A DNA stretch of 64,000 nucleotides, from positions 96,193 through 160,192 of the IMG/VR virus record IMGVR_UViG_3300026549_000038. The stretch is one strand, 5' to 3'. The notes under the pieces are model-generated. The model worked only from the letters and a program-made list of their open reading frames with translations, made no database searches and was not told where the DNA came from. Every line of letters starts with the position of its first letter. The first letter of the stretch is position 1. The stretch comes from a virus (lineage: Duplodnaviria > Caudoviricetes). Below are positions 24,941-49,363 of this stretch, piece by piece. A program made the translations under genes and the position numbers.

Positions 24941-25852
24941 TTATTTTACATAAATATAAAGATATTCGTCGTGTTTATGTGGGGTTTTGTTGTTGATGTG
25001 TACGGAGCGGTTTTTTGAGAGTTTGAAAGAATATTGCGGAGTTGGTTGTGATTTCATCAGGTCTTCTCTCATGACCAAAGCATAGACCATACAAGAATCT
25101 TTCGCTAAAAATTTATTATACAAGCACGTTAAAAATTCATCAAACTCATCTGTACACGTGAATCTCCCACACTCATATATTTCGAGATTATAATATGGTG
25201 GACAGGTGAACATAACGTTAAAATCTTCTTGTGGAGTATATGATCTCGCATCTTCATTGTGGAGCTCAGCATTCCAAAAATCAAAATAAGACTTTATGCT
25301 ATCTACCTTATCATATGTGTGATACGAGAGATCGTTGTATATGTACTTTTTGATTTCTGTCGAGCCAATCATCCTATGCCCCCAACCCCCGCACGGATCA
25401 AACACAATCATCTGTTTCATGTTGATCCCCACATTATCTTGAATCCATTGATAGACCCACTTGCAGAGTTGTGGATTAAATCCTCCATAACCGTAGTAAA
25501 TCGCGCTTTTTTTGAATCCAGAGAGTATATCATAAGTATTAAGTTGATCCGGGGTTTTATTCAGGTAATACATGCGATTTTCGAGGATTTTCTTACGGAT
25601 GTCCAAATCATACCACATTGTCTTTTCAACACAGAAATAATTATCTTGTTGAAAAGCCTTCACTATCTTATTTCTGTTACAGTTCAGCGTGAGTTGTCCC
25701 CGAGGGTGATCGAGATACCAAAAGAATTCCTGGTGTAGTTCTTCGCTAGTAGGACTCCACCAGAGTTCTGGGTCGATATTCGGAAACATTTTTTCAAAGT
25801 TCGTAGTTACGTCTTCGTCTGTCAAAAAATGTTTTATATTACTATTGTTCAT
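24941..25852 (-). CDS. DNA amino-methyltransferase (m6A/m4C type)
   Basis: SAM-binding FDPCGGWG, catalytic FTCPPY; start overlaps upstream nuclease stop by 11 bp. Confidence 0.85.
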   Translation of the reverse strand: MNNSNIKHFLTDEDVTTNFEKMFPNIDPELWWSPTSEELHQEFFWYLDHPRGQLTLNCNRNKIVKAFQQDNYFCVEKTMWYDLDIRKKILENRMYYLNKTPDQLNTYDILSGFKKSAIYYGYGGFNPQLCKWVYQWIQDNVGINMKQMIVFDPCGGWGHRMIGSTEIKKYIYNDLSYHTYDKVDSIKSYFDFWNAELHNEDARSYTPQEDFNVMFTCPPYYNLEIYECGRFTCTDEFDEFLTCLYNKFLAKDSCMVYALVMREDLMKSQPTPQYSFKLSKNRSVHINNKTPHKHDEYLYIYVK

Positions 25853-27140
25853 ATAAAAATATATTTAAAACTTCTTTAAGATTTGTGGAGAATACCTCTT
25901 TCCAGTTCAATTTATGTTCTTTAACCCAGAGCCGTTTCTTAGGATCTCGGATCGTCCAAGTCTCTATGGCATTATCATAGAAGTCGCTGTGTTTGTCTTT
26001 CCAGCTTTGAAGGGTCTTCTGGTCTTGAGCCGATTCCGGATCGAACGGGTGATGACCATGAACCCAACTGCCTTGTATCTCAAGATAAAGGTTCTTATCC
26101 GGAAAATAAAAGTCACAGTTAAAAGGATACTCTTCGCTTCTGTATTGATACTTATAGTTTATATTATTCGAATCAAGCCAGTCTTTAAATTCCTTCTCGA
26201 TCTTAGACGAGTTGAATGTCCCGTTGAGTTTTTTTGTCTCATAGGATTTCTTTTGAATTTCTGATTGAATGTGTTTTATATGTTCTTTATAATTATCTGT
26301 TTGAGAATATGATTCGGCGCCGTATCGTTCGAGATTGGTCTGTCTGATTTTAGATTTGATCTCTGAAGAAGCAAATGGGTTCTCAGCACCGTATCGTTCG
26401 AGATTGGTCTTCTTTGCCTTGGACTGCACAGTCTCGTTCTGCATAGGATTCTCTGTTCCGTATCGTTCGAGATTGGTCTGTCTGATTTTAGATTTGATCT
26501 CTGAAGAAGCAAATGGGTGAGAGACCCCGTAGTGTTCAATGCTTGTGGAGCGGATCTTTTCTTTAAAAGATTTTGTTTTGCTGTAGTGATCTACGCCGTA
26601 TGTGTCCAACAGGGATTCTTTAAAGTTTTGTCGCACAGTCTCGTTCTGCATAGGATTCTCTGTTCCGTATCGTTCGAGATTGGTCTTCTTTGTCTTAGAT
26701 CGCACAGTCTCGTTCTGCATAGGATTCTCTGTTCCGTATCGTTCGAGATTGGTCTTCTTTGTCTTAGATCGTATGGTGTAGTATTTTTCTTTAAAAATAT
26801 TATTGAACTCTTTGGTTTTAGAAAAGTTATCTACACCGTATCGTTCGAGACAGGACGTGCGCGACAGGTCTTTTTTGTTTGGGTCGTTGTTGGAACATCG
26901 TCTGCAGCAGTATTTGCGGTAGCCAACCGTACGATTTTCGAAAACAACCCTGCTACTGCAGACTCTACAGACCGGTCGGACATCTAAATTATTCTGAAAA
27001 CGATAGAGCCTCTCAGAGAACGAATCGCTGTCAGTATAATGAGTCATTAGGTATGAATAGAGTTCTGGATAGTTCCTTTGGAAGTATCTTGAGTCGATCG
27101 ATGGAAATTTTTTGTGTTTGAATTGTTCCAAATCCTGCAT
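25842..27140 (-). CDS. homing-type endonuclease: Zn module + TNLERYG repeats + Vsr/DUF559-like PD-(D/E)XK domain
   Basis: CRVC...YCCRRC; 23-aa repeats; CDFYFPDKNLYLEIQGSWVHG; likely start ATG27140 (MQDLEQF). Confidence 0.8.
   Translation of the reverse strand: MQDLEQFKHKKFPSIDSRYFQRNYPELYSYLMTHYTDSDSFSERLYRFQNNLDVRPVCRVCSSRVVFENRTVGYRKYCCRRCSNNDPNKKDLSRTSCLERYGVDNFSKTKEFNNIFKEKYYTIRSKTKKTNLERYGTENPMQNETVRSKTKKTNLERYGTENPMQNETVRQNFKESLLDTYGVDHYSKTKSFKEKIRSTSIEHYGVSHPFASSEIKSKIRQTNLERYGTENPMQNETVQSKAKKTNLERYGAENPFASSEIKSKIRQTNLERYGAESYSQTDNYKEHIKHIQSEIQKKSYETKKLNGTFNSSKIEKEFKDWLDSNNINYKYQYRSEEYPFNCDFYFPDKNLYLEIQGSWVHGHHPFDPESAQDQKTLQSWKDKHSDFYDNAIETWTIRDPKKRLWVKEHKLNWKEVFSTNLKEVLNIFLYEQ
26632..26771. 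repeat. perfect 69-bp tandem duplication (RSKTKKTNLERYGTENPMQNETV x2)
   Basis: CGCACAGTCTCG... starts at 26632 and again at 26701. Confidence 0.9.
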
Positions 27141-27184
27141 TATATTAATATAATGAAAGTCCAACATGTATTTATTAAATATAC

Positions 27185-27211
27185 AAAAAAAGACCTCAGA
27201 GAGGTCTTTTT
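27185..27211. terminator. intrinsic terminator after tail tube gene
   Basis: AAAAAAAGACCTC-AGA-GAGGTCTTTTT. Confidence 0.85.
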
Positions 27212-27238
27212 AAAAATCGGTAAGTATAAGTTGGGCGA

Positions 27239-27811
27239 TTATGCGTTGGTTTCGCTCCACCAGTCGCTTACGAAGCTTACGCTGACGTTGAAAGTTTCGC
27301 GAGACTCGTAATCGAAGCTTGATGTGACATCCTCAGGACCTTTAGACATCATAACGTCCTTCAACACGATATCTTGGTAAATATCTCCAACTCTGTTGGC
27401 AACTACAACCCTCATCCAATCAGCACAGTAATCTTTCTTCAGAACTTTCTCACCAGTACTGATATCATATCCGAGTTTTCCCCAAGCCTTCAAAAGCTTA
27501 TAAATGTAGTTGTCGATTCCGTTACGGAGGTTAAGAGAAAACTCTACAGTAATCTCTACTCGAGTCTGGTCAAGACCACTCTGAATGTAAGAACGGTCGG
27601 TTCCCATAAACCTCTGCTGGCTAACAGCAGGAACTTTATTTAAATTATTCAGACCATCAATCTTCAGAACATGCTCTGTAAGAATTGCTTCATCTTGAGC
27701 AAACTGACTACGAAGTGCCTCTGGGAGAGTAAAATACACTTCGAAGAGGTTTCGGTGTATAGGATCCCATTTGTTCACTCCTGCTTTACTATTTGTAATG
27801 TGTGGTAACAT
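27239..27811 (-). CDS. gp19: tail tube protein (T4 gp19-like)
   Basis: 190 aa; RNLFEVYF, FDYESRETFNVSVSFVSDWW C-terminus typical of tube proteins; own terminator. Confidence 0.75.
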   Translation of the reverse strand: MLPHITNSKAGVNKWDPIHRNLFEVYFTLPEALRSQFAQDEAILTEHVLKIDGLNNLNKVPAVSQQRFMGTDRSYIQSGLDQTRVEITVEFSLNLRNGIDNYIYKLLKAWGKLGYDISTGEKVLKKDYCADWMRVVVANRVGDIYQDIVLKDVMMSKGPEDVTSSFDYESRETFNVSVSFVSDWWSETNA

Positions 27812-27935
27812 AATTTTATCTCGTTTATTTAATTAAATAAATAATAAATGTATAGATCAAAAAGTTGTAAACAGTTTTAATTAAAAACTTGTAACTTATT
27901 TATTATATTTATATGAAATATAATTTATATTTAAT

Positions 27936-29918
27936 ATGAAAATCCCAAAAATAGAAGAACTAGATTCCCCAAAGAAAATGGGAAGCCTATATTTGAAGAA
28001 ACACTACCCGGAATTTTACCAATACCTTTGTAACAAATATAAAGGTTATCCTATAAAAAAGACCACCGAACTTGTATACCTTTATTACAATGAATTGTCT
28101 GAACCACACAGGTGCCCGGTCTGTGACAAATACACCACATTTCTCGACTACAAAAGAGGATATCAAAAGTACTGTGGGCTCAAATGTTCTAATTCTGACC
28201 CGGAAGTCAAAGCCAAAAAAGACGCAACATCAATAAAGAAATTCGGAGTTGCTCACGCGGCTCAAAATGCGTCCATAAAAGAAAAACTCATCAAGACTTA
28301 CACTGAGAGACATGGTGGCATGGGCAACGCTAGTTCGGCCGTGCAGAAGAAACAGCAGGCCACTATGGAAGAAACTTATGGTCATAAACACGCCATGCAG
28401 AACCCAGAGATACTTAAGAAATCTCAAGACACTCTCGAGAGCCATTACGGAGTCAGAAACACTTTCAAATCGGATCAAATTAGAGAAAAAATTAAGCAGA
28501 CTAATTTAGAAAGATATGGAGTAGAATATGGTCTTATGGCAGAAGAAATTAGAGAAAAAATTAAGCAGACTAATTTAGAAAGATATGGGGCAGAATGTAA
28601 CTTGTGTTTGCCAGCAATGCGCGAGAAAATCCGAAGGACTAATATAGAAAAATACGGCTCGTCAGAACCGTTTAAAGCCAAAGACATTAAAGAAAAAATC
28701 AAACAAACCAATCTCGAAAGATACGGAGACGTTATTCCGATGAGAACCGATAACATAAAGAAAAAAGTCCAACAAACCAATCTCGAAAGATATGGAGTAG
28801 ACAACCCTTCTAAATCACAGGATGTTGTAAACAAAATAATTGAAATCAAACGAGCAGCTGCAATTGATAAAATAGAAGATTTGTTGGGATATACAGAAGA
28901 AGGGGATTGGATTCGTAAGTGTCCGCACCAGGGATGTAATAAGTGTAATGAAAAAACTTATATAATATCTCCCGAACATTATCGCACACGTAAAGCATCC
29001 AACACAGAGCCATGCACAAATATTCTTCCCGTTCAACAAGGAAGATTATCTGGTACGTCTATAGAATTGTTTGTAAGAGATGTGCTTGATAAAAACCATA
29101 TTGAATATATTACTAATGATCGTACAGTTCTAGAAGGTAAAGAACTTGATATATATATTCCAAAATATCGTCTTGCAATAGAATGTAATGGTATTTACTG
29201 GCATTCATCAGCATGGAAAGATGTTAAATATCACTTTGATAAATACATCAAGTGCGCCCAGGCTGGAATTCAACTGCTTACTATCTGGGAAGATCAAATA
29301 GTTAACAAACCAGAAATAGTAGAATCCATCATCTGTTCTAAATTGGGAATATATGATATTCATGTTGGTGCTCGATTATGTAGCGCACGTGAAATTCCAC
29401 AGAGCACAGCCAAACAATTCCTGAACAAATATCATCTTCAAGGTTCTGTAGTGTCTAAATATAATATAGGTTTATTTTACAAAGATGAACTGGTGTCTGT
29501 TATGACGTTCGGGAGAAAACGCAGGGCTCTTGGAAACAAATCTGCAAGACCTACAGAGTTTGAATTATATCGTTATTGCACAAAATCTGGTGTTCAAATT
29601 ATTGGCGGTGCCTCAAAATTATTGAAATATTTTATAGATCACTACAACCCGACTATCATCGAATCATTTTCCTCTAATGATATTTCAAACGGCTCTCTTT
29701 ATGGATCTCTTGGTTTTTCCAGGGTCAGCGAAACATATGGTTCTTATTGGTACATAGATGAAAACCTAAGAAGATATCATAGGTTTAACTTTACCAAAGG
29801 AAAACTAGTGAAAGAAGGAGCAGACCCAAACTTATCAGAATCTGAAATCATGATGAACTTAGGATATACGAGGATTTATGATAGTGGTCAGACTAAATGG
29901 ATTTTAAAATTACATTAA
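27936..29918 (+). CDS. Hef-like homing endonuclease: Zn module + repeats + PD-(D/E)XK domain + C-terminal GNAT-like domain
   Basis: ELDIYIPKYRLAIECNGIYWHS; HLQG, ELYRYC, GGASKLLKYF, LYGSLGF, IYDSG. Confidence 0.8.
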   Translation: MKIPKIEELDSPKKMGSLYLKKHYPEFYQYLCNKYKGYPIKKTTELVYLYYNELSEPHRCPVCDKYTTFLDYKRGYQKYCGLKCSNSDPEVKAKKDATSIKKFGVAHAAQNASIKEKLIKTYTERHGGMGNASSAVQKKQQATMEETYGHKHAMQNPEILKKSQDTLESHYGVRNTFKSDQIREKIKQTNLERYGVEYGLMAEEIREKIKQTNLERYGAECNLCLPAMREKIRRTNIEKYGSSEPFKAKDIKEKIKQTNLERYGDVIPMRTDNIKKKVQQTNLERYGVDNPSKSQDVVNKIIEIKRAAAIDKIEDLLGYTEEGDWIRKCPHQGCNKCNEKTYIISPEHYRTRKASNTEPCTNILPVQQGRLSGTSIELFVRDVLDKNHIEYITNDRTVLEGKELDIYIPKYRLAIECNGIYWHSSAWKDVKYHFDKYIKCAQAGIQLLTIWEDQIVNKPEIVESIICSKLGIYDIHVGARLCSAREIPQSTAKQFLNKYHLQGSVVSKYNIGLFYKDELVSVMTFGRKRRALGNKSARPTEFELYRYCTKSGVQIIGGASKLLKYFIDHYNPTIIESFSSNDISNGSLYGSLGFSRVSETYGSYWYIDENLRRYHRFNFTKGKLVKEGADPNLSESEIMMNLGYTRIYDSGQTKWILKLH

Positions 29919-29945
29919 AAAAGAGCCCTTGTGAGCTCTTTTTTT
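29917..29945. terminator. bidirectional intrinsic terminator
   Basis: AAAAAAGAGC...GCTCTTTTTTT between convergent genes. Confidence 0.8.
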
Positions 29946-29964
29946 GATCATTTAAAGAATATAC

Positions 29965-30336
29965 TTATCTCTGCAGACAAACCCACACATATCCATAAGG
30001 ATCTGTATAACTCTCGCCTGGTTCTAGGCTATCTATTTCTTCTCCTTCAGTCCACCAATCGTTTATGCCAATAGCAGAACACATATTGTCAAAGCTTCCG
30101 TCGTCTTCACCATTTCTGACATCGCTCATATCAAATTGTCCCATATCAATAGTTATAAAACTGATTGCTTCTTGTCCTGGGTGTTTTCCTGTATCAATTT
30201 TTAGATACTGGCTTCCATTTGTACGAGTGCCAATAGGCAGTCTCTTGAGAACTGATCTCTTTGTATATCCCTTTCCTTCTTCAATAGCAGCTTCATTGAC
30301 AGCCGATTTATTCAAGTAATCTTTAATATTTTCCAT
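29965..30336 (-). CDS. small protein with capsid-targeting-like leader
   Basis: Likely start ATG30336 (MENIKDYLNKSAVNE); ATTATTATT upstream. Confidence 0.7.
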   Translation of the reverse strand: MENIKDYLNKSAVNEAAIEEGKGYTKRSVLKRLPIGTRTNGSQYLKIDTGKHPGQEAISFITIDMGQFDMSDVRNGEDDGSFDNMCSAIGINDWWTEGEEIDSLEPGESYTDPYGYVWVCLQR

Positions 30337-30378
30337 AAATAAAATGATTAATTTATTAAAAAATAATAATATCAATAT

Positions 30379-30438
30379 TCAATTTTTAATCCATTCCCAG
30401 CGTATATGCCCACTGTCATATACTTTTAGGTATGGAAT
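30379..30438 (-). pseudogene. orphan 3' end of a Hef-like endonuclease gene
   Basis: Reads IPYLKVYDSGHIRWEWIKN*; compare LPYWKIYDSGHIKWYKKLL* at end of 47573..49288. Confidence 0.85.
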
Positions 30439-30439
30439 C

Positions 30440-30487
30440 CGAATTTATGATAGCGGACAAACTAAATGGCCCTTAAAGATAAGTTAA
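30440..30487 (+). pseudogene. orphan 3' end of a Hef-like endonuclease gene
   Basis: Reads RIYDSGQTKWPLKIS*; compare RIYDSGQTKWILKLH* at end of 27936..29918. Confidence 0.85.
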
Positions 30488-30498
30488 CATTTATTTCA

Positions 30499-30528
30499 CG
30501 GACTAAATGGGTATCGAAGGTTATTTAA
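30499..30528 (+). pseudogene. possible third orphan endonuclease tail
   Basis: Reads RTKWVSKVI*; GACTAAATGG identical to the 27936-gene tail, with similar stop spacing. Confidence 0.45.
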
Positions 30529-31747
30529 TAAACATATAAAGATACTCTCCATTCTTCGCAGTCGCCCCATTCGTAAGATGAATTGCGCGATTTTTCGAAA
30601 GTAAAAACTTCTGATCTGGCTTATGAATATTTTCATCTATAAGATTTTCTTGAATCACTAAAGCAAAAACTTTTGCAGGACCTGTCCAAAATACTTCAAA
30701 TAACCTATTCATAAACAGATCGAAATCTGTTCTTGATGAGAAATCTCCACAAGGATAAGATTCAAGATTAAAATAAGGAGGACACGTAAACATAACATCA
30801 TAATCTTCTTCTGGTATCCACCGAAGACAATCTTCGTTGTGAAGCTCCACATTAAAAAACTCAAAGTAATCCTTTATAGATTGCACCCCATTATATGTTG
30901 GGCGAGATAAATCATTATAAATGTATTTTTTAATCTCTGTTGATCCAATCATTCGGTGACCCCAACCACCACAAGGGTCGTACACCACCATATCATCCAT
31001 CTTGATACCTACGTTTTCTTCTATCCAAGCATACACCCATTTACAAAGCTGGGGGTTAAAACCACTATAACCATAATGTATTGCGGATTTTTTGAATCCA
31101 CTCAATATGTCATATGTATTGAGTGTTTCAGGCGTTTTGTCTAGGTATTTGAGCCTGTTGAGAAGAATCTTTTGTTTAATTTCCGGCTCTTGCCAAAGCT
31201 CTTTTTCTCTCTTATAGAAAGTATCCTGCTGGAAGAACTTGACAATTTTATTCTTATTACAGCGGAGGGTAAGTTCCCCAACTGGATGATCCAGATACCA
31301 AAAAAATTCATCATAGAGTTCTTCTCGTGTGAGATTCCAATGAAGATCCGGATCAACGTTTGGAAATGAGAGTGTTAGTGATGTTGACGTATTATTCGCC
31401 TGTCTCCACTTTTGTACAACCTTGCTGAATTGCATGGGGTGTTCGGTTCCATAATGAGATAAGGATGTTTGTTTCTTCAGAAGTTGAACTTGAGAAGATC
31501 GTTGTGCACAGGATTTAGAACAATACATATGGTAACCCTTTTTAGAATTTATAAATTTAACAGGATTACCACAGATGCAACAGGTTGGTGTTGTTGTTAT
31601 ATTGTTGTAATACCAATACAGTCTTTCTTGAAATTTCAAGTTCGGATATACGTTCAAAAGATGTTGATAGAAGTCGGGATATTTTTGTTTTACCTGATCT
31701 TCGCGGCAACTATATTTATTTAATTTATTATAATCAGGAACATCCAT
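30521..31747 (-). CDS. DNA amino-methyltransferase fused to homing-nuclease-type N-terminal Zn module
   Basis: YDPCGGWG, FTCPPY; N-terminal YPDFY...ERLYWY...CCIC...YCSKSC; paralog of 24941..25852. Confidence 0.85.
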   Translation of the reverse strand: MDVPDYNKLNKYSCREDQVKQKYPDFYQHLLNVYPNLKFQERLYWYYNNITTTPTCCICGNPVKFINSKKGYHMYCSKSCAQRSSQVQLLKKQTSLSHYGTEHPMQFSKVVQKWRQANNTSTSLTLSFPNVDPDLHWNLTREELYDEFFWYLDHPVGELTLRCNKNKIVKFFQQDTFYKREKELWQEPEIKQKILLNRLKYLDKTPETLNTYDILSGFKKSAIHYGYSGFNPQLCKWVYAWIEENVGIKMDDMVVYDPCGGWGHRMIGSTEIKKYIYNDLSRPTYNGVQSIKDYFEFFNVELHNEDCLRWIPEEDYDVMFTCPPYFNLESYPCGDFSSRTDFDLFMNRLFEVFWTGPAKVFALVIQENLIDENIHKPDQKFLLSKNRAIHLTNGATAKNGEYLYMFIK

Positions 31748-32792
31748 ATATGATTTCTTTATATTTTTGAATAACTACATCCAAGTCCGTTGAAAAAACT
31801 TCAACCCAGTTGAGCTCGTGTTCTTTAGCCCATTGTCGTTTTGTGGGGTCACGAACAGTCCAGGTCTCTATGGCGTTGTTGTAAAATTTTGTTTTCTTTT
31901 TAACCCATTCATTTAATATGATTTGATCTTGGGGTGAATCTGAATTATATGGGTGATCATTATGAACCCAGCTACCTTGTATCTCAAAATAGAGATCTTT
32001 ATCAGGAAAGTAAAAGTCACAGTTAAACGGATAAGAATCAGAACGATATTGATACTTATAATTTATATGATTATCATCTAACCATTTTTTAAACTCCTGT
32101 TCAATTTTGGATGTGTTAAATGTTCCGTTTTTCTTTTTAGTTTCATATATTTTTTTCTTATATTCGTCTGTCTGTGAATAGCTATCTACTCCATAACGTT
32201 CCCTTACAGTGTTCCGGAGTTTTTCTTTAACCCCCTTTTGAATGGATCGGACATACTCCAGACATTCTGGATTTTTCATAGGATTAGAAACACCATATTT
32301 TTTCTTACATGTTTCTTCGTATTTCTTTTTATTTACATCTGAAGCATTACCACAACCTCCATACAGTTCGATGTTTCTTAAGTTCGACTTTCTTTTAACT
32401 GATTCGTTTTGCATGGCATTGGGTACTCCGTATTTCTCTACGCAAGATTGTTGCATTCGATCCCTGACTGTTTTCGAAGCAGCTGGTGATGAACCTCCAT
32501 ATTTTTTCTTACATGTTTCTTTTGTCTTGATTTTTTTATCAGTATCAGAATTAGAACACTTTATACTACAATACGCCGTGTATCCGTATTTGGGATTGAT
32601 GTAGTTAGTAGGCTTACCACATATCTTGCATGTTGGATGTACAATTATATTGTGCAGATACCAATAAACTCTTTCTTTCCAAGGAAGCTCGTCTGGATAT
32701 TTATCCATTATAAACCTATAAAATTCAGGAAAATGTTTTTTAACACAAATCTCTCGGTTATATTTTTGCAAAGTTAGATCAGGAATTATCAT
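31734..32792 (-). CDS. homing-type endonuclease: Zn module + repeats + Vsr/DUF559-like domain
   Basis: CKIC...YCSIKC; TCKKKYG repeats; CDFYFPDKDLYFEIQGSWVH; paralog of 25842..27140. Confidence 0.8.
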   Translation of the reverse strand: MIIPDLTLQKYNREICVKKHFPEFYRFIMDKYPDELPWKERVYWYLHNIIVHPTCKICGKPTNYINPKYGYTAYCSIKCSNSDTDKKIKTKETCKKKYGGSSPAASKTVRDRMQQSCVEKYGVPNAMQNESVKRKSNLRNIELYGGCGNASDVNKKKYEETCKKKYGVSNPMKNPECLEYVRSIQKGVKEKLRNTVRERYGVDSYSQTDEYKKKIYETKKKNGTFNTSKIEQEFKKWLDDNHINYKYQYRSDSYPFNCDFYFPDKDLYFEIQGSWVHNDHPYNSDSPQDQIILNEWVKKKTKFYNNAIETWTVRDPTKRQWAKEHELNWVEVFSTDLDVVIQKYKEIIYGCS

Positions 32793-32862
32793 ATCTAATT
32801 ATATAATAAATAAAAATAATGAAAAATTTAATTCATTATTAAAATTTTCATATAAATTGAGT

Positions 32863-32897
32863 AAAAAAAGAGCCTGCACTTTTGTGCAAGCCCTTTT
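32863..32897 (-). terminator. intrinsic terminator after major capsid gene
   Basis: Minus-strand hairpin GGGCTTGCAC-AAAA-GTGCAGGCTC followed by T7. Confidence 0.8.
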
Positions 32898-32918: not shown

Positions 32919-34640
32919 TTAGATAACATCAACTCCGTCGCTGTCAACCATGAAGGTGAAGTATGACTGCTCTGGCCAGAAACCAGCGTCAACGATAGCA
33001 AATCTTGAGTTAACAAGAAGCTTCGGAGCCATAGTGCCTTCAGCGGTAATCTGAACGGTGTCAGCTAAGATATATGGCATGAAGATTACGCCCGGGTCGT
33101 TGCCCGTAGATTTTCTTCCGACACATATACGGCAGTCGTCCCAAGTCATGTAAGGGTCAACATAGAGGTTCAGACCTGCTACGGAACCAGCGAAATACAG
33201 ACTCTTGCTACCATCCTGTACAAGGGTGTTAGTCATAGGAGCGATTACAAATCCAGCTGCATCCTGAAGAGCAGACAGAATCTGAGTGTTAGTTACAACC
33301 CACTGACCTCTTCCCCAACGGCTTACGTTAGCGATAAGGTTAGCTGCTGCAAGAATACGGCTCATAACCCTTCTCTGAAGAGTGTGAGTGTTCTCAGCTG
33401 CGGTGTTCTGAGTAGCGTTCTTAACTGCGCCCCAGTTGGTAGCTGCATTAGTTCCATCGATGCCGATGAACTTCTTAGCTGCAGAGAAAGCAGACAGATT
33501 CTTGGTAGCTGCGGCACCAGCATTAGAGAAGTACAGGTTAAGGTCAACACCCTGATACTCTTTCTGGTTCTTAGCGTTGGTTACACCAAGACGGAATACT
33601 CTGTCGAGGATTCTGTTGTTGATTTCCTGAGAAATCTCGTTCTGCATAGCCTCGAGAACCTTTCCTACTACGTCAACTCCGTAAAGCGGCATATCCTGAA
33701 GCTGCTGACGAGTAACAGTACCAGTTACTTCATAAGCACCCATCTGAACGAGCTTAGTGAACATGCGTGCACCGATAGTGTTACCAACACCAGTCTCGTT
33801 CTGAGCCCTTGTCATAGGGTCATCACTTCCATTGAAGAAGTTACCGAATCCCTGAACGTGATCAGCGTTTCCTGATACGAGCTGAGGATCGCAAGCCTGA
33901 GCTGTCTGAGTACCGAGAACTGCAGATGCAGCGGTAGAAGACAAAGTTACGTTAGCGCTAAATACGTCAGCGATAGATACATCAGCGTTATCAGCAGCGT
34001 TACGAACTTTTACAACCTTAACGATCATACCGTTGTCGATACGGCTGAAACCAATGAAACTACCAGTGAATACACCAGCTGTACTAGTGAACACGATATC
34101 GTTACCTACAACGAAATCTGCTTTAGTCTTACCAGTAGCATATACAACATTGTACTTAACCTTAATATAAATAGGTTTGTTCTCTGCATCTGGACCAATA
34201 CCATCAACACCAAGAACTTCGTTTGCACGACCGGTCTTACCACCAGCATAAGGGGTATCCATGTAAGAAAGCATAGCCCAAGGGCCCTTTGAAGGGATAA
34301 CTGGAACGAGCTCAAGACCGATAGTCATAGCTGCGATTGTAAGAGCCATTGTCAGGGTTGACATTGGAATGTCACCTGAACCAACCTTATTTGTATAGAA
34401 ATCAGCTGCACCTGGGCCAGAAACCTCAGGATTCATAGGATTTCCCATACCCATAGTATTCAGAGGAGTAGCATAAATGTTCTGACTCACGTTGTTAGTA
34501 TTAGGCTGAAGGCCTTCATATACCTCGTGGTTCTTTGCATACTCACTCATCCAAGCAAGCTTACTAGCGTTCTCAACGCCGAGCTCTTCTTTGATAATCT
34601 GTGACCACTTCTGATCACCGTTTTCTGTAATGAACTTCAT
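32919..34640 (-). CDS. gp23: major capsid protein (T4 gp23-like)
   Basis: IGLELVPVIP, TRQQLQD, EISQEINNRIL, RWGRGQWVV, LYVDP, GVIFMPY, EGTMAPKLLVNSRFA; high-expression codon bias. Confidence 0.95.
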   Translation of the reverse strand: MKFITENGDQKWSQIIKEELGVENASKLAWMSEYAKNHEVYEGLQPNTNNVSQNIYATPLNTMGMGNPMNPEVSGPGAADFYTNKVGSGDIPMSTLTMALTIAAMTIGLELVPVIPSKGPWAMLSYMDTPYAGGKTGRANEVLGVDGIGPDAENKPIYIKVKYNVVYATGKTKADFVVGNDIVFTSTAGVFTGSFIGFSRIDNGMIVKVVKVRNAADNADVSIADVFSANVTLSSTAASAVLGTQTAQACDPQLVSGNADHVQGFGNFFNGSDDPMTRAQNETGVGNTIGARMFTKLVQMGAYEVTGTVTRQQLQDMPLYGVDVVGKVLEAMQNEISQEINNRILDRVFRLGVTNAKNQKEYQGVDLNLYFSNAGAAATKNLSAFSAAKKFIGIDGTNAATNWGAVKNATQNTAAENTHTLQRRVMSRILAAANLIANVSRWGRGQWVVTNTQILSALQDAAGFVIAPMTNTLVQDGSKSLYFAGSVAGLNLYVDPYMTWDDCRICVGRKSTGNDPGVIFMPYILADTVQITAEGTMAPKLLVNSRFAIVDAGFWPEQSYFTFMVDSDGVDVI

Positions 34641-34665
34641 AATTTGTAAAGTATTATTTTCGAGT

Positions 34666-34684
34666 TATTTATAAAAATAATAAT
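34666..34684 (-). promoter_or_regulatory. candidate late promoter of capsid gene
   Basis: Minus strand ATTATTATTTTTATAAATA, containing both ATTATTATT and the T4-like TATAAATA. Confidence 0.55.
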
Positions 34685-34718
34685 CAACCAGTTAGCCTAT
34701 TTGGAACTGGTTGATTAT
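34680..34718 (-). terminator. terminator of upstream structural operon, abutting the capsid promoter
   Basis: 14-bp perfect stem ATAATCAACCAGTT/AACTGGTTGATTAT, 11-nt loop, followed by TATTTTT on minus strand. Confidence 0.7.
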
Positions 34719-34762
34719 GAATAAGTTAGGACGATGTTTTTAAATGTTCCTTATTAGACACA

Positions 34763-36475
34763 TTAAATATATGTTATATTTGCATGTGACCCATCCGCTA
34801 CGAAATTACTATCATCACTAATTTCTCTCCATATCAGCCCGGCTTCTAACGTATCGCCACTGGTAGATAGTCCACGAGATCTGAAAGTTATTGTATTATT
34901 TTCCATATCGTAAGAACCAGCAGTGTCGTTTTGATCACCTATATAAACAGCAACATCTCCTGCTTGTATTCCTGTTAGGCTTATTCCAAGAGCTCCTCTT
35001 GTTACCGCATCAGATACCGCCCTGCTAATGGTGTTGTTCCAATCAGTACTACAGTTTAAAACTATATTGAACAGCATTCTCGTATCTTCCACGTCGGAAT
35101 CTGTACTATATGTCCCGCTTGATATTGATACCGCTGGTTTTTCTGTAATAGATATTTGTAAACTACCGGTTACATCTATTTCGTTTCCAAGCGTTGGTGC
35201 GGAACCGGAAACACCAGTAACAAATTTTGGTTTCATGGTAAGTGTTACGGTACCGGAGGCACTGTCAGAAAATCTTATAGTTATTTTACCGCTGGCGTTG
35301 TTTATAGTGATATTGTCTATTCCTCTTGGGGTGATTGAAGGAACGGGCACATACATTTTTATACCTTCGGAATCGTTTGGAATGTATGCCCTGGCATTAA
35401 AGTTTACTTCTTTGGTTCCTCCAGCTGGAGCCTGAAGAGGATTGCCAGAGTTTACAACAAAACTATAGTTATTTACAGTAGCACCAGCTTGCGATACACT
35501 ACAAGTTTTGTTAGTTTCTTCGGAAGCAGACATGATAAGGGTATTACCTGTTACTGGAGATGATGTTAAAGATTTTAAATATTTAACGTTTTGATATGTA
35601 GTTGCTGAATAATTTTTTGATGTTGGACTAAGGGTTATAATACCGTTGGTTGTTCCAGGTAGTATATTGGAAATTGGCAGTGCCGGGTCGGTGTCATATA
35701 GTCCACTAGTATTGTCTGTTCCTTTCGTAATTGTAGCAGTATTATCAGGGAGAGTGTTTGAATATCCAACCTGAACCGATCCACCAGCTGCAGGAAGAAC
35801 TACAGAAGTTGTTATGGATATAGCTCCAGATGCTGTTGTGGTTATTACATAACCGTGATCACTTGAAGGATCGGATATCATTAGATTTAAGGTAGTGGCG
35901 CTTTGTCCAGCATTGACCTGGAAGTAAAAATAATACACATCGTTGTCTCCCCAAGTAGAGTCAGATGGACAAATGTAAGCTGATGATCCGTCTGAGGATT
36001 CAGTACCATTTACAAATTGACTCATGTTTGTTGGCTTCTCATTACAAAATTTGCTAGATTCAGAAACAAGTGTACATGTAGTCATAGCATATCTTATTTT
36101 AGATAAATTTGATAAGCCATATACATAATACTTTCCGTTAGAAACTGTAGCTGAACTGGATATTTGATTCCTGGTTGTCGGCACAATTTTGGCAAGTCCA
36201 TTGAAATCTGCTATTGTCGGTTCACTTGATTTAACACCAACTGTTAACATTCGAAGTGAAGCTGGAGACTGATATACTGTAAATGTTTTTACCGGCGGGT
36301 GGTTCAAATCGCCGAGCTCGGTTGTTCTAGTCGAATCTGTGTATGTGGTTAATTTAAAATTTTGAGTTTTTGTAAGTCTACCAAAATTTTGACTATCAGA
36401 AACGAACTGTACTTGTGTCTCGCTCCATTCGTTTGTTCCACCAATTTCTTGTCCTGTTTTTATATTTATAGCCAT
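34763..36475 (-). CDS. Ig/BACON-like beta-rich virion protein (fibre or decoration)
   Basis: S/T/G-rich; LPAAGGSVQV, CSVSQAGA, FTVYQSPA segments typical of BACON/Ig repeats. Confidence 0.55.
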   Translation of the reverse strand: MAINIKTGQEIGGTNEWSETQVQFVSDSQNFGRLTKTQNFKLTTYTDSTRTTELGDLNHPPVKTFTVYQSPASLRMLTVGVKSSEPTIADFNGLAKIVPTTRNQISSSATVSNGKYYVYGLSNLSKIRYAMTTCTLVSESSKFCNEKPTNMSQFVNGTESSDGSSAYICPSDSTWGDNDVYYFYFQVNAGQSATTLNLMISDPSSDHGYVITTTASGAISITTSVVLPAAGGSVQVGYSNTLPDNTATITKGTDNTSGLYDTDPALPISNILPGTTNGIITLSPTSKNYSATTYQNVKYLKSLTSSPVTGNTLIMSASEETNKTCSVSQAGATVNNYSFVVNSGNPLQAPAGGTKEVNFNARAYIPNDSEGIKMYVPVPSITPRGIDNITINNASGKITIRFSDSASGTVTLTMKPKFVTGVSGSAPTLGNEIDVTGSLQISITEKPAVSISSGTYSTDSDVEDTRMLFNIVLNCSTDWNNTISRAVSDAVTRGALGISLTGIQAGDVAVYIGDQNDTAGSYDMENNTITFRSRGLSTSGDTLEAGLIWREISDDSNFVADGSHANITYI

Positions 36476-47572: not shown

Positions 47573-49288
47573 TTATAATAATTTTTTATACCACTTAATG
47601 TGACCGCTATCGTATATTTTCCAGTAAGGTAAAGAAGCCATAATCTGGGATTCCGTATTGTGTTCTATATCATACCCCATTTGTTCAAGCTTTCTTTTGG
47701 TGAATGATGTTCTATGATATCTGTGCAAGTCGTTTTTATTTATATACCAATATGCTCCTGTTATTTTTCCATCGCTCGAGAATCCCAAACTTTTATAAAG
47801 TCCACCATTGCTAATATCATTAGATGAAAACGATGTGATAGATTTTGGGTTATATACATTAATAAAATAACTCATAAGTTTCCCAGCTGCTCCTACCACT
47901 TGAGTATTCAATTTTGTACAAAATCTGGTCAATTCCCAATCAGTCTTGCTGTTTCCGGTATTTCCGGAAAGTTGTGATCGTTTATTAAAAGTCATAATAC
48001 CCACACATTCTTTATCCTTAAATATACCTAAACTAACCTTAGCTGGACATGTTCCTTGTATGTGGTTGCTGTTTAAAAATTCCGTTTTTGTTTTTGAATC
48101 CACTTCGAGAATCTCACAATTCCTGGCGTATATTCTATTTTTATATATTCCTAATTTAGAAAGTAATATTGACTTAATAATCTCAGAGTGTATCTTCACC
48201 TGATCTTCCCAGATAGTTAACAATTGAATATTTTTATCTCGGCATTGTTTAAATTTGTTAATATGATAACTACTGTTTTTTAACTCAGTGGAATGCCAAT
48301 AACACCCATTACATTCTATCGCAAGTTTGTGACTTGGTATGTATATGTCAATTTCTCCTGCGATGATGTCTCTTACATTACAGCGATAATTTATATCATA
48401 TTCATCTAATATATCTCTTATAAAAATTTCTATACTTGATATGTTTGGAGAAACTGGAAGTAATTTTGTACAAGTTTCAATACCGTTATAAATCCTGTGG
48501 AAATATACTTCAGAATTAATATTATATTGTTTGTTGGTGCATTTATCACAGCTTGGATTTGAACATTTTATGGTATATATTGTATTTCCATCAAGCATTT
48601 GAATATCAATGACATTTGGATATTTGTTGGTAATTTTATTTTTTATAGAATTTATATAATTATCAAATATTTTAGGATTAGGATGCGCACTCCCATATCT
48701 TTCGAGATTTGTCCGTTGAATTTTTTGTTGTATCTGCTCCGAGGCACCGGCCCAGTTAACTCCATATCTTTCGAGATTTGTCTGTTGAACCTTTTTCTTT
48801 ATGTTGTCAGTCCTCATTGGAATAATGTCTCCATATCTTTCAAGATTGGTTTGCGCTGTTTTTTCCGCTAACTCTTTTGATGCAAACCCTATACCCCCGT
48901 ATTTTTTTAAATGAGTATCTTTAACTTTTTTATTAACCCCCGGGATCTGAGATATATTAGAAACTTCATATTTTGTTTTAACTGTGGATAATGTTCTTTT
49001 TATTCTCTCAGGTGAAGACTCAGAGCATTCCCGACTGCAAAATTTTTTATAACCCTTATTAAAATTTACATATTTGGTTGGTTTACCACACATCTCACAA
49101 ACCGGTGCATGATTTATTTGATTAAAATACCAGTATAATTTTTCAGAAATAGTTGTTAAAAAATTATATTTATTGTTTATAAATTCATAAAAGTCTGGGT
49201 AATTTAATCTAATAAATTTATCTTGACATGCGTGCTTTGAATTTTCGGATATAAATGCTTTTGTTGGTTGGCTTATTTTGTGAGTCAT
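47573..49288 (-). CDS. Hef-like homing endonuclease with C-terminal GNAT-like domain
   Basis: CEMC...FCSREC; TNLERYG repeats; EIDIYIPSHKLAIECNGCYWHS; HIQG, ELTRFC, GAAGKL, LYKSLGF, IYDSG. Confidence 0.8.
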   Translation of the reverse strand: MTHKISQPTKAFISENSKHACQDKFIRLNYPDFYEFINNKYNFLTTISEKLYWYFNQINHAPVCEMCGKPTKYVNFNKGYKKFCSRECSESSPERIKRTLSTVKTKYEVSNISQIPGVNKKVKDTHLKKYGGIGFASKELAEKTAQTNLERYGDIIPMRTDNIKKKVQQTNLERYGVNWAGASEQIQQKIQRTNLERYGSAHPNPKIFDNYINSIKNKITNKYPNVIDIQMLDGNTIYTIKCSNPSCDKCTNKQYNINSEVYFHRIYNGIETCTKLLPVSPNISSIEIFIRDILDEYDINYRCNVRDIIAGEIDIYIPSHKLAIECNGCYWHSTELKNSSYHINKFKQCRDKNIQLLTIWEDQVKIHSEIIKSILLSKLGIYKNRIYARNCEILEVDSKTKTEFLNSNHIQGTCPAKVSLGIFKDKECVGIMTFNKRSQLSGNTGNSKTDWELTRFCTKLNTQVVGAAGKLMSYFINVYNPKSITSFSSNDISNGGLYKSLGFSSDGKITGAYWYINKNDLHRYHRTSFTKRKLEQMGYDIEHNTESQIMASLPYWKIYDSGHIKWYKKLL

Positions 49289-49334
49289 AATTGGTTCAGT
49301 ATAATTTTCAAACTGTATAAATAATAATAAAAAA

Positions 49335-49363
49335 ATAAAGCGGGATATTTAGTCCCGCCTTAT
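49335..49363 (-). terminator. probable terminator after tail sheath gene
   Basis: Stem GCGGGA/TCCCGC with T-rich tail on the minus strand. Confidence 0.65.

Follow-up and report, generated by a model that had tools for sequence, protein, structure and literature searches.

We found that a 64,000-nucleotide stretch of phage DNA (positions 96,193 to 160,192 of the IMG/VR record IMGVR_UViG_3300026549_000038, a T4-like phage contig of 160 kb and 37% G+C; hereafter the window) carries two gene pairs, or cassettes, in each of which a nuclease of the homing-endonuclease kind is coupled with a methyltransferase (MTase) that bears an unusual CPPY motif (Table 1). The pair is the split (fission) form of a common single-chain protein that occurs in hundreds of other phages, with the break at the domain border, and the relationship between the partners is one-sided: the MTase depends on homing nucleases, whereas the nuclease is independent of the MTase. 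In our estimate, there is an even chance that each pair is a free-standing homing element encoding a two-subunit enzyme, which would consist of an EDxHD nuclease with its DNA-reading module and a CPPY amino-MTase that would shield the element's own site.

The distribution of the MTase family was investigated first from the MTase side. The family comprised 242 clusters at 50% identity (E 1e-30 or better), and it is phage-borne and virtually absent from cellular genomes: among 185,579 species genomes, the cellular homologues amounted to 16 weak loci, all of them on contigs of metagenome-assembled genomes (MAGs). In the IMG/VR loci that were recovered with the MTase as query, a zinc-ribbon head, DUF7487 repeats (PF24308), the nuclease domain, and the MTase made up one open reading frame (ORF) of 560-750 amino acids (aa) in 15 or more cases. 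Long single-chain forms accounted for 107 clusters in the protein collection, most of them with PF24308. Architectures were then counted over the 150 best family representatives at 50% identity. An EDxHD nuclease and the MTase shared one chain in 69 of them, while the MTase stood alone in 28, followed the head without a nuclease (like MTase 2 of the window) in 16, was joined to an EndoVII-like domain in 13 and to other long N-terminal parts, LAGLIDADG and HNH included, in another 13, and had short N-terminal extensions in 11. LAGLIDADG-MTase and HNH-MTase fusions were also found directly in loci, and an EndoVII-like ORF of ~260 aa (PHROG 1035) precedes the CPPY MTase right after the major capsid gene gp23 in 24 IMG/VR loci. 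The same MTase is attached independently to LAGLIDADG, HNH, and EndoVII-like nucleases besides the EDxHD nuclease. All three of the stand-alone homologues examined (P0044, P0050, and P0027) had an adjacent DUF7487 nuclease gene, and the short homologue examined (P0106) was a fusion of the nuclease domain and the MTase. In fused relatives (e.g., L013), the MTase profile begins 1-2 residues past the end of the nuclease profile. The split forms, namely L005, L007, and both window cassettes, group together as a single clade in both trees, that of the nuclease and that of the MTase, and among the sampled loci the two window cassettes are sisters in both. Distances in one tree are correlated with those in the other (Mantel r 0.54, 0 of 2000 permutations), and shared phage ancestry contributes to this correlation.

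Both pairs are located on the minus strand, and the nuclease and MTase genes overlap by 11 bp in pair 1 and by 14 bp in pair 2. An earlier description of this DNA made from its letters (the sequence-only reading) had reported this arrangement, which the ORFs confirmed, and the shared motifs that it quoted, CPPY included, are present. Its ORF of nuclease 1 was retained with a corrected start, because the ORF begins at 27167 and the position given as its start, 27140, is the second in-frame ATG. The same reading regarded the cassette as duplicated. Paralogy was evident, since MTase 1 and MTase 2 shared 59% of their residues over 291 aa (E 7e-130), and identity between nuclease 1 and nuclease 2 was 40% overall (E 2e-93), rising to 66% in the C-terminal catalytic domain. 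However, the cassettes were only 71-78% alike at the DNA level, and in patches, which rules out a recent tandem duplication and identifies them as old paralogues. Both window overlaps are in the +1 frame, as are those of L005 and L007. A programmed frameshift fusing nuclease and MTase was considered and rejected, because no slippery run was found in the nuclease-MTase overlaps of the window, L005, or L007. Gene overlap suggests translational coupling, and these are probably ordinary overlapping genes that are coupled in this way.

The assignment of the window nucleases to the homing-endonuclease kind, with DUF7487 and a Vsr-like/EDxHD catalytic domain, was supported by profiles, residues, and fold. 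Against a gathering cutoff of 27 bits, PF24308 scored 153 bits with nuclease 1, 64.2 bits with nuclease 2, and 155.8 bits with hef3, a gene lying between the two pairs, and the window nucleases matched PHROG 3339/12131, annotated 'homing endonuclease'. When 25 C-terminal domains were aligned, D50, Y52, H68, D106, and K109 (domain numbering) were invariant and E22 and E61 nearly so, with E22 in at least 90% of the 25 sequences; E, D, H, and D are intact in both window nucleases. These four residues form the composite motif by which Vsr-like homing endonucleases of the EDxHD family, phage Hef enzymes among them, are defined (PMC3239194). The AlphaFold2 (AF2) model of the nuclease domain had a predicted local distance difference test (pLDDT) value of 93. 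It matched Vsr (1cw0; Z 8.7, root-mean-square deviation [rmsd] 4.0, 113 residues aligned), the DUF559-like protein 3hrl (Z 8.1), and the catalytic domain of I-Bth0305I (3r3p; Z 8.1, rmsd 2.5, 89 of 97 residues). Foldseek by itself gave just a weak match (E 0.02), and the fold was therefore called from the VIA-align comparison; the nuclease sequence profile had no significant match among PDB sequences. The closest full-length relatives of nuclease 1 among named phages were those of Prevotella Lak megaphages, none of which came up in the MTase search. The 23-aa repeats of DUF7487 double as 69-bp DNA repeats (window 26299-26850 and 28477-28803), and some of the 69-bp units are 88-96% identical inside one gene, which suggests that repeats within nuclease 1 and hef3 may have recently expanded or been homogenised.

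No Pfam family matched MTase 1 or MTase 2 at its gathering score. Nevertheless, more than 220 metagenomic homologues of like length were obtained, and in more than 115 of 120 homologues motif I (DPCGGWG) and motif IV (FTCPPY) were conserved without, or almost without, change. The AF2 model of MTase 1 (pLDDT 90.5) comprises a helical N-domain and a class I Rossmann fold, and its nearest solved folds were METTL5, RsmD, Trm11, METTL16, and a type I M subunit, all of which are nucleic-acid amino-MTases with [DN]PP[FY] motifs. Among PDB sequences, the MTase profile obtained weak matches (2zie, E 0.007; Trm11, E 0.67). Motif IV of the family is CPPY, compared with (D/N/S)PP(Y/F) in N6/N4 amino-MTases, and Cys for Ser is a conservative change. 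Since more distant relatives have FTSPPY, SPPY, or SPPF at the same position, the most plausible reading of CPPY is SPPY with Ser replaced by Cys. These distant FTSPPY relatives reach PF01555 (N6_N4_Mtase), with motif I before motif IV, that is, in permuted order, and some of them are ParB-MTase fusions. Judging from motifs and model, it is credible that the partners are Rossmann-fold amino-MTases acting on nucleic acid. Because SPPY is typical of N4-cytosine MTases, N4-methylcytosine (m4C) would be the likeliest product, with N6-methyladenine (m6A) as the alternative. MTase 2 differs from MTase 1 in having an additional 118-aa N-terminal zinc-ribbon/DUF7487 head, which matches PHROG 3339 alone (4.9e-9) and is collinear with the N-terminus of nuclease 2 (39% identical). 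This likeness, at 39% identity no closer than that to other heads of the genome, is no guide to whether MTase 2 and nuclease 2 share a DNA specificity. The sequence-only reading had called the two partners a homing-type nuclease and an MTase, and both calls agree with our results: DUF7487, the Vsr-like/EDxHD fold, the catalytic residues, and insertion polymorphism (see below) speak for the former, and the confident Rossmann model, the amino-MTase nearest folds, and motifs I and IV for the latter.

MTase 1 was then modelled in complex with the nuclease 1 domain. The complex scored 0.80, whereas the best of three controls scored 0.00. Among solved complexes, 58 of 80 reached the score mark, as did 2 of 110 mismatched pairs; these rates are rough since custom alignments were used. 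At least 51% of the contacts agreed between runs, and the pLDDT of the partners was at least 82. On the MTase side, the predicted interface involves the helical domain and one Rossmann face; on the nuclease side, it involves residues 15-22, 64-67, and 90-101, beside the catalytic residues E22 and H68. Profile searches of the PDB with either partner found no related solved complex and no close solved relative. Because neither part has a close solved relative, it is unlikely that the score reflects a structure already familiar to the predictor. The model supports a predicted binding of the two window proteins to each other.

The element that we favour would work as follows. The nuclease would cut a long site in or beside the adjoining conserved gene of phages without the element, and recombinational repair would then copy the element into the cut phage. 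In the carrier genome, the MTase would dock on the nuclease domain and methylate an exocyclic amino group at the nuclease's own site; MTase 1 has no DNA-reading module of its own, and if it docks on the nuclease, the site that it methylates would therefore be that of the nuclease. The methylated site would block self-cleavage, and for this reason an invariant site in an essential gene could be targeted without a protective mutation. Several findings weigh against such self-protection. The nuclease gene comes before the MTase gene, a risky order by the logic of restriction-modification; motif IV has Cys where Asp, Asn, or Ser is expected, and the activity is one predicted from sequence; and the DNA-reading head that MTase 2 itself carries resembles other heads in the genome at least as closely as it does that of nuclease 2. 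Moreover, the MTase was present within 4 kb of just 6 of 79 IMG/VR nucleases of this type (3 fused and 3 adjacent), and 73 of 76 nuclease ORFs stop at the nuclease domain. Self-protection by methylation is thus not a general need of the nuclease family, as the count of 6 in 79 loci indicates. The sequence-only reading had expected the two families to be linked in other genomes, and this was true from the MTase side, where nearly every member is fused or adjacent to a homing-type nuclease, but not from the nuclease side. Its picture of a coupled element likewise survived in part, in that one polypeptide, co-divergence, and the complex model argue for functional coupling, whereas a need for the MTase is not general among the nucleases.

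More tentatively, and at somewhat less than an even chance, the CPPY MTases may represent a widespread class of phage selfish elements, in which homing endonucleases of at least four folds have their own epigenetic immunity and methylation of the carrier replaces mutation of the target site, which would open invariant sites in essential genes (e.g., the capsid gene) to attack. With such epigenetic immunity, genes consisting of head and MTase (e.g., MTase 2) would serve as alleles that confer only immunity to rival elements. Folds and selfish behaviour are common to homing endonucleases and restriction enzymes, and in evolutionary terms the elements would directly bridge homing endonucleases and restriction-modification systems.

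Table 1. Features of the two nuclease-MTase cassettes and of their surroundings (window positions unless stated otherwise)
Feature	Position	Strand	Description
Nuclease 1	25842..27167	-	441 aa ORF; zinc-ribbon head ~aa 1-115
Nuclease 1, DUF7487 repeats		-	23-aa repeats, ~aa 116-302
Nuclease 1, Vsr-like/EDxHD catalytic domain	25842..26261	-	aa 303-441
MTase 1	24941..25852	-	303 aa; helical N-domain ~aa 1-125 and Rossmann domain
MTase 1, motif I	25379..25399	-	DPCGGWG, aa 152-158
MTase 1, motif IV	25193..25207	-	TCPPY, aa 216-220
Nuclease 2	31734..32792	-	352 aa; head, fewer DUF7487 repeats
Nuclease 2, Vsr-like/EDxHD domain	31734..32162	-	
MTase 2	30521..31747	-	408 aa; CPPY MTase body after head
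MTase 2, zinc-ribbon/DUF7487 head	31394..31747	-	aa 1-118; PHROG 3339 match aa 18-118
Inserted block	27850..32890		~5.04 kb; nuclease 2, MTase 2, orf136, Hef fossil, and hef3; between capsid terminator and tube promoter
Major capsid gene, Gp23 family	32919..34640	-	PF07068
Probable tail tube gene	27239..27811	-	190 aa; PHROG 32623; conserved neighbour of cassette 1
Terminator-like hairpin	27187..27211	-	Between tube stop and nuclease 1 start
hef3	27936..29918	+	660 aa; head, DUF7487, Vsr-like nuclease, and Mom-like C-terminal domain; between the two pairs
Bidirectional terminator-like hairpin	29917-29944		Common to the end of orf136 and convergent hef3
orf136	29965-30375	-	Inside inserted block
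Hef fossil, 3' end	30386..30481	+	32 codons, stop-terminated, between orf136 and MTase 2
Second Hef-type gene	47576-49348	-	
Third Hef-type gene	genome 32053-33900		Outside window

Of the other explanations, the one that survives best, although we regard it as unlikely, makes the MTase a non-protective subunit of the nuclease, that is, a module for base-flipping recognition or for regulation (inhibition), with any methyl transfer being incidental to the choice of target or the control of cutting. A gating or shaping partner would be expected to sit where the predicted interface lies, abutting the catalytic residues E22 and H68, and most nucleases of the EDxHD/DUF7487 type function without an MTase. 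On the other hand, the motifs for binding S-adenosylmethionine and for catalysis do not vary even among diverged members, an argument for catalysis having been retained, and a fold-specific regulator is hard to reconcile with the same MTase module being joined to four unrelated nuclease folds.

Insertion polymorphism was observed at the junction of the capsid and tube genes. In L166 and L167, whose gp23 is 72% identical, the tube gene directly follows the capsid gene, which represents an empty site. The alignment of these two loci to the window runs to 32891 (28 bp past the gp23 stop) and resumes from 27849 (38 bp before the tube start codon). Because they align on both sides, the block between these points is an insertion that takes the place of a spacer of ~255 bp. 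The gp23 gene is the conserved neighbour, and likely the target region, of cassette 2. Nuclease-MTase genes were found directly downstream of gp23 in L002, L005, L007, L013, L015, L016, and L017. The contents of the gp23-tube site vary, including a nuclease, an MTase, and a reversed Hef gene (L007), fused nuclease-MTase genes in either orientation (L013, L015, L016, and L017), and a Hef/Mom gene (L168, L169, L172, and L176). Cassette 1 is located after the tube gene, a homologue of which comes after the sheath gene in L005, and the order tube, nuclease, nuclease, MTase was also found in L142. The tube gene is followed in L007, L166, L167, and L179 by a gene with a counterpart (up to 89% identity) in the present genome; this counterpart lies ~89 kb away (genome ~34,007-34,972) and adjoins another Hef gene. 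The synteny break coincides with cassette 1 (window 24941-27239), and therefore both breakpoints carry DUF7487 nuclease genes.

These positions bear on a second explanation, slightly less probable than a non-protective subunit, in which the pair is a restriction-modification weapon of the phage, whose nuclease would cut the DNA of hosts or rivals at numerous positions and whose MTase would guard the whole phage genome. The resemblance of the one-chain nuclease-MTase to Type IIG/IIC enzymes is in its favour, as is the gene order of L002-L004 and L014, where the MTase gene comes first as in restriction-modification operons. However, the nuclease belongs to a homing family and has DNA-reading repeats for a long site, the elements occupy the same conserved-gene flanks in diverged phages, empty sites exist, and several such elements are found together in one genome. 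A third explanation, to which we give a little less credit again, treats the MTase as cargo, an anti-restriction methylase against host enzymes that hitch-hikes on mobile nuclease genes. Orphan MTases are common in phages, homing genes co-convert flanking DNA, and the MTase is alone in 28 of the 150 best representatives. Yet hitch-hiking requires neither fusion into one polypeptide nor a predicted direct interface, an MTase tethered to a long-site binder would fail to protect the genome as a whole, and the stand-alone MTases P0044, P0050, and P0027 all have a nuclease next door. Finally, a repair pair of the dcm-vsr kind, with a Vsr-like nuclease nicking deamination mismatches at the base methylated by its partner, is very improbable, because in spite of Vsr being the nearest fold and of vsr overlapping dcm in Escherichia coli, the partner resembles amino-MTases and not C5-cytosine MTases, is equally joined to LAGLIDADG, HNH, and EndoVII nucleases, and accompanies a nuclease with homing-type DNA-reading modules and insertion polymorphism.

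The surroundings of the cassettes were also inspected. Megablast against the phage collection found no close DNA relatives of the window. The late-promoter word of T4 type, TATAAATA, occurs at 26 sites in the window (8.8 expected) and precedes gp23 (34666-34673) and the tube gene (27906-27913), and a scan of the window did not find it directly upstream of nuclease 1 or nuclease 2. Cassette 1 would be transcribed by read-through alone. Within the inserted block, orf136 had no Pfam or PHROG match, and the Hef fossil was 53% identical to the final residues of hef3 (E 4e-5), a remnant that shows probable past turnover of elements at this hotspot.

Besides the two cassettes, the genome has three genes of the Hef/Mom type, all built of a head, DUF7487, a Vsr-like nuclease, and a Mom-like C-terminal domain. 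hef3 matched PHROG 3339 (2e-140) and PHROG 1384 (2e-9), and its Vsr and Mom matches were below the Pfam cutoffs (22.5 bits against a cutoff of 27.1 for Mom). By sequence, its Mom-like domain had no match in the PDB. Relatives of hef3 were found in 436 phage records, many of them annotated as Hef-like homing endonuclease. As a weak relative of another adenine-N6 modifier, a Mom-like domain on Hef nucleases would fit the same protective logic.

If the MTase protects its carrier, this would explain how the elements can adjoin the phage genes that are most conserved, which they presumably target. Such protection would also provide a natural link between the worlds of homing and restriction enzymes, and long-site nuclease/methylase pairs with matched specificity could serve as tools. 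The window offers a simple two-protein version of a large family that is easy to clone.

The cassettes were compared with known systems. Type IIG/IIC enzymes, further examples of which are MmeI and Eco57I, have motif I before motif IV in their MTases, as do the fused relatives of the window pairs. In BpuSI (3s1s), as in these fused relatives, a nuclease of the PD-(D/E)XK superfamily and an amino-MTase use one DNA-recognition module; the fold match of BpuSI to the nuclease domain model was weak (Z 3.3). Unlike Type IIG/IIC enzymes, however, the window genes are separate ORFs and encode a Vsr-like nuclease of the homing kind. In the relatives, the DNA reader is N-terminal with nothing after the MTase, so there is no C-terminal target-recognition domain, and the element resides in phages, is mobile beside structural genes, and hardly occurs in cellular genomes. 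Residence in cells as a defence, a trait of Type II restriction-modification systems, was not seen in this family, given the 16 weak MAG loci in 185,579 genomes. The E. coli dcm-vsr pair also has a Vsr-fold nuclease gene overlapping an MTase gene. In that system, the MTase is a C5-cytosine enzyme placed first, and the nuclease repairs T:G mismatches. In contrast, the window partner is an amino-MTase instead of a C5-cytosine enzyme, and the nuclease has homing-type modules.

On the nuclease side, there is a close likeness to the EDxHD/Vsr-like homing endonucleases I-Bth0305I (3r3p) and phage U5 Hef (PMC3239194; PMC2988022), with which the window nucleases have the Vsr-like fold and the E/D/H/D residues in common. 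As in the window, the DNA-binding region is N-terminal and the enzyme is encoded by a free-standing gene that adjoins a conserved gene of the phage. The DNA readers differ, being a zinc ribbon with DUF7487 repeats in the window nucleases and NUMOD or helix-turn-helix modules in the known EDxHD enzymes, and the words methyltransferase and methylase are absent from the paper on the EDxHD family (PMC3239194). Hef-type proteins with a Mom-like domain (hef3 and PHROG 3339) are alike in their head, repeats, related nuclease, and insertion site after gp23 in relatives, and weak profile matches relate their C-terminal domain, too, to a modifier of DNA base amino groups. They differ in having a Mom-like partner instead of an S-adenosylmethionine-dependent MTase, always in one chain. 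F-CphI, an Endo VII-motif enzyme of cyanophage S-PM2 (PMC6083498), represents the EndoVII-like kind of nuclease that partners the CPPY MTase after gp23 in the 24 IMG/VR loci, and its fold is unlike that of the window nucleases; the abstract of that paper mentions no MTase (PMC6083498). ORFs of this F-CphI type overlap the CPPY MTase or are fused to it among L019-L054 (e.g., L025:5034-6741). Our literature search found no paper naming DUF7487 and none on a homing endonuclease with a cognate MTase or on their fusion. Particular to the window are the two-subunit split form, which occurs twice and at the flanks of two conserved genes, and also the head carried by MTase 2, the predicted heterocomplex, and the clean boundaries of the empty site.

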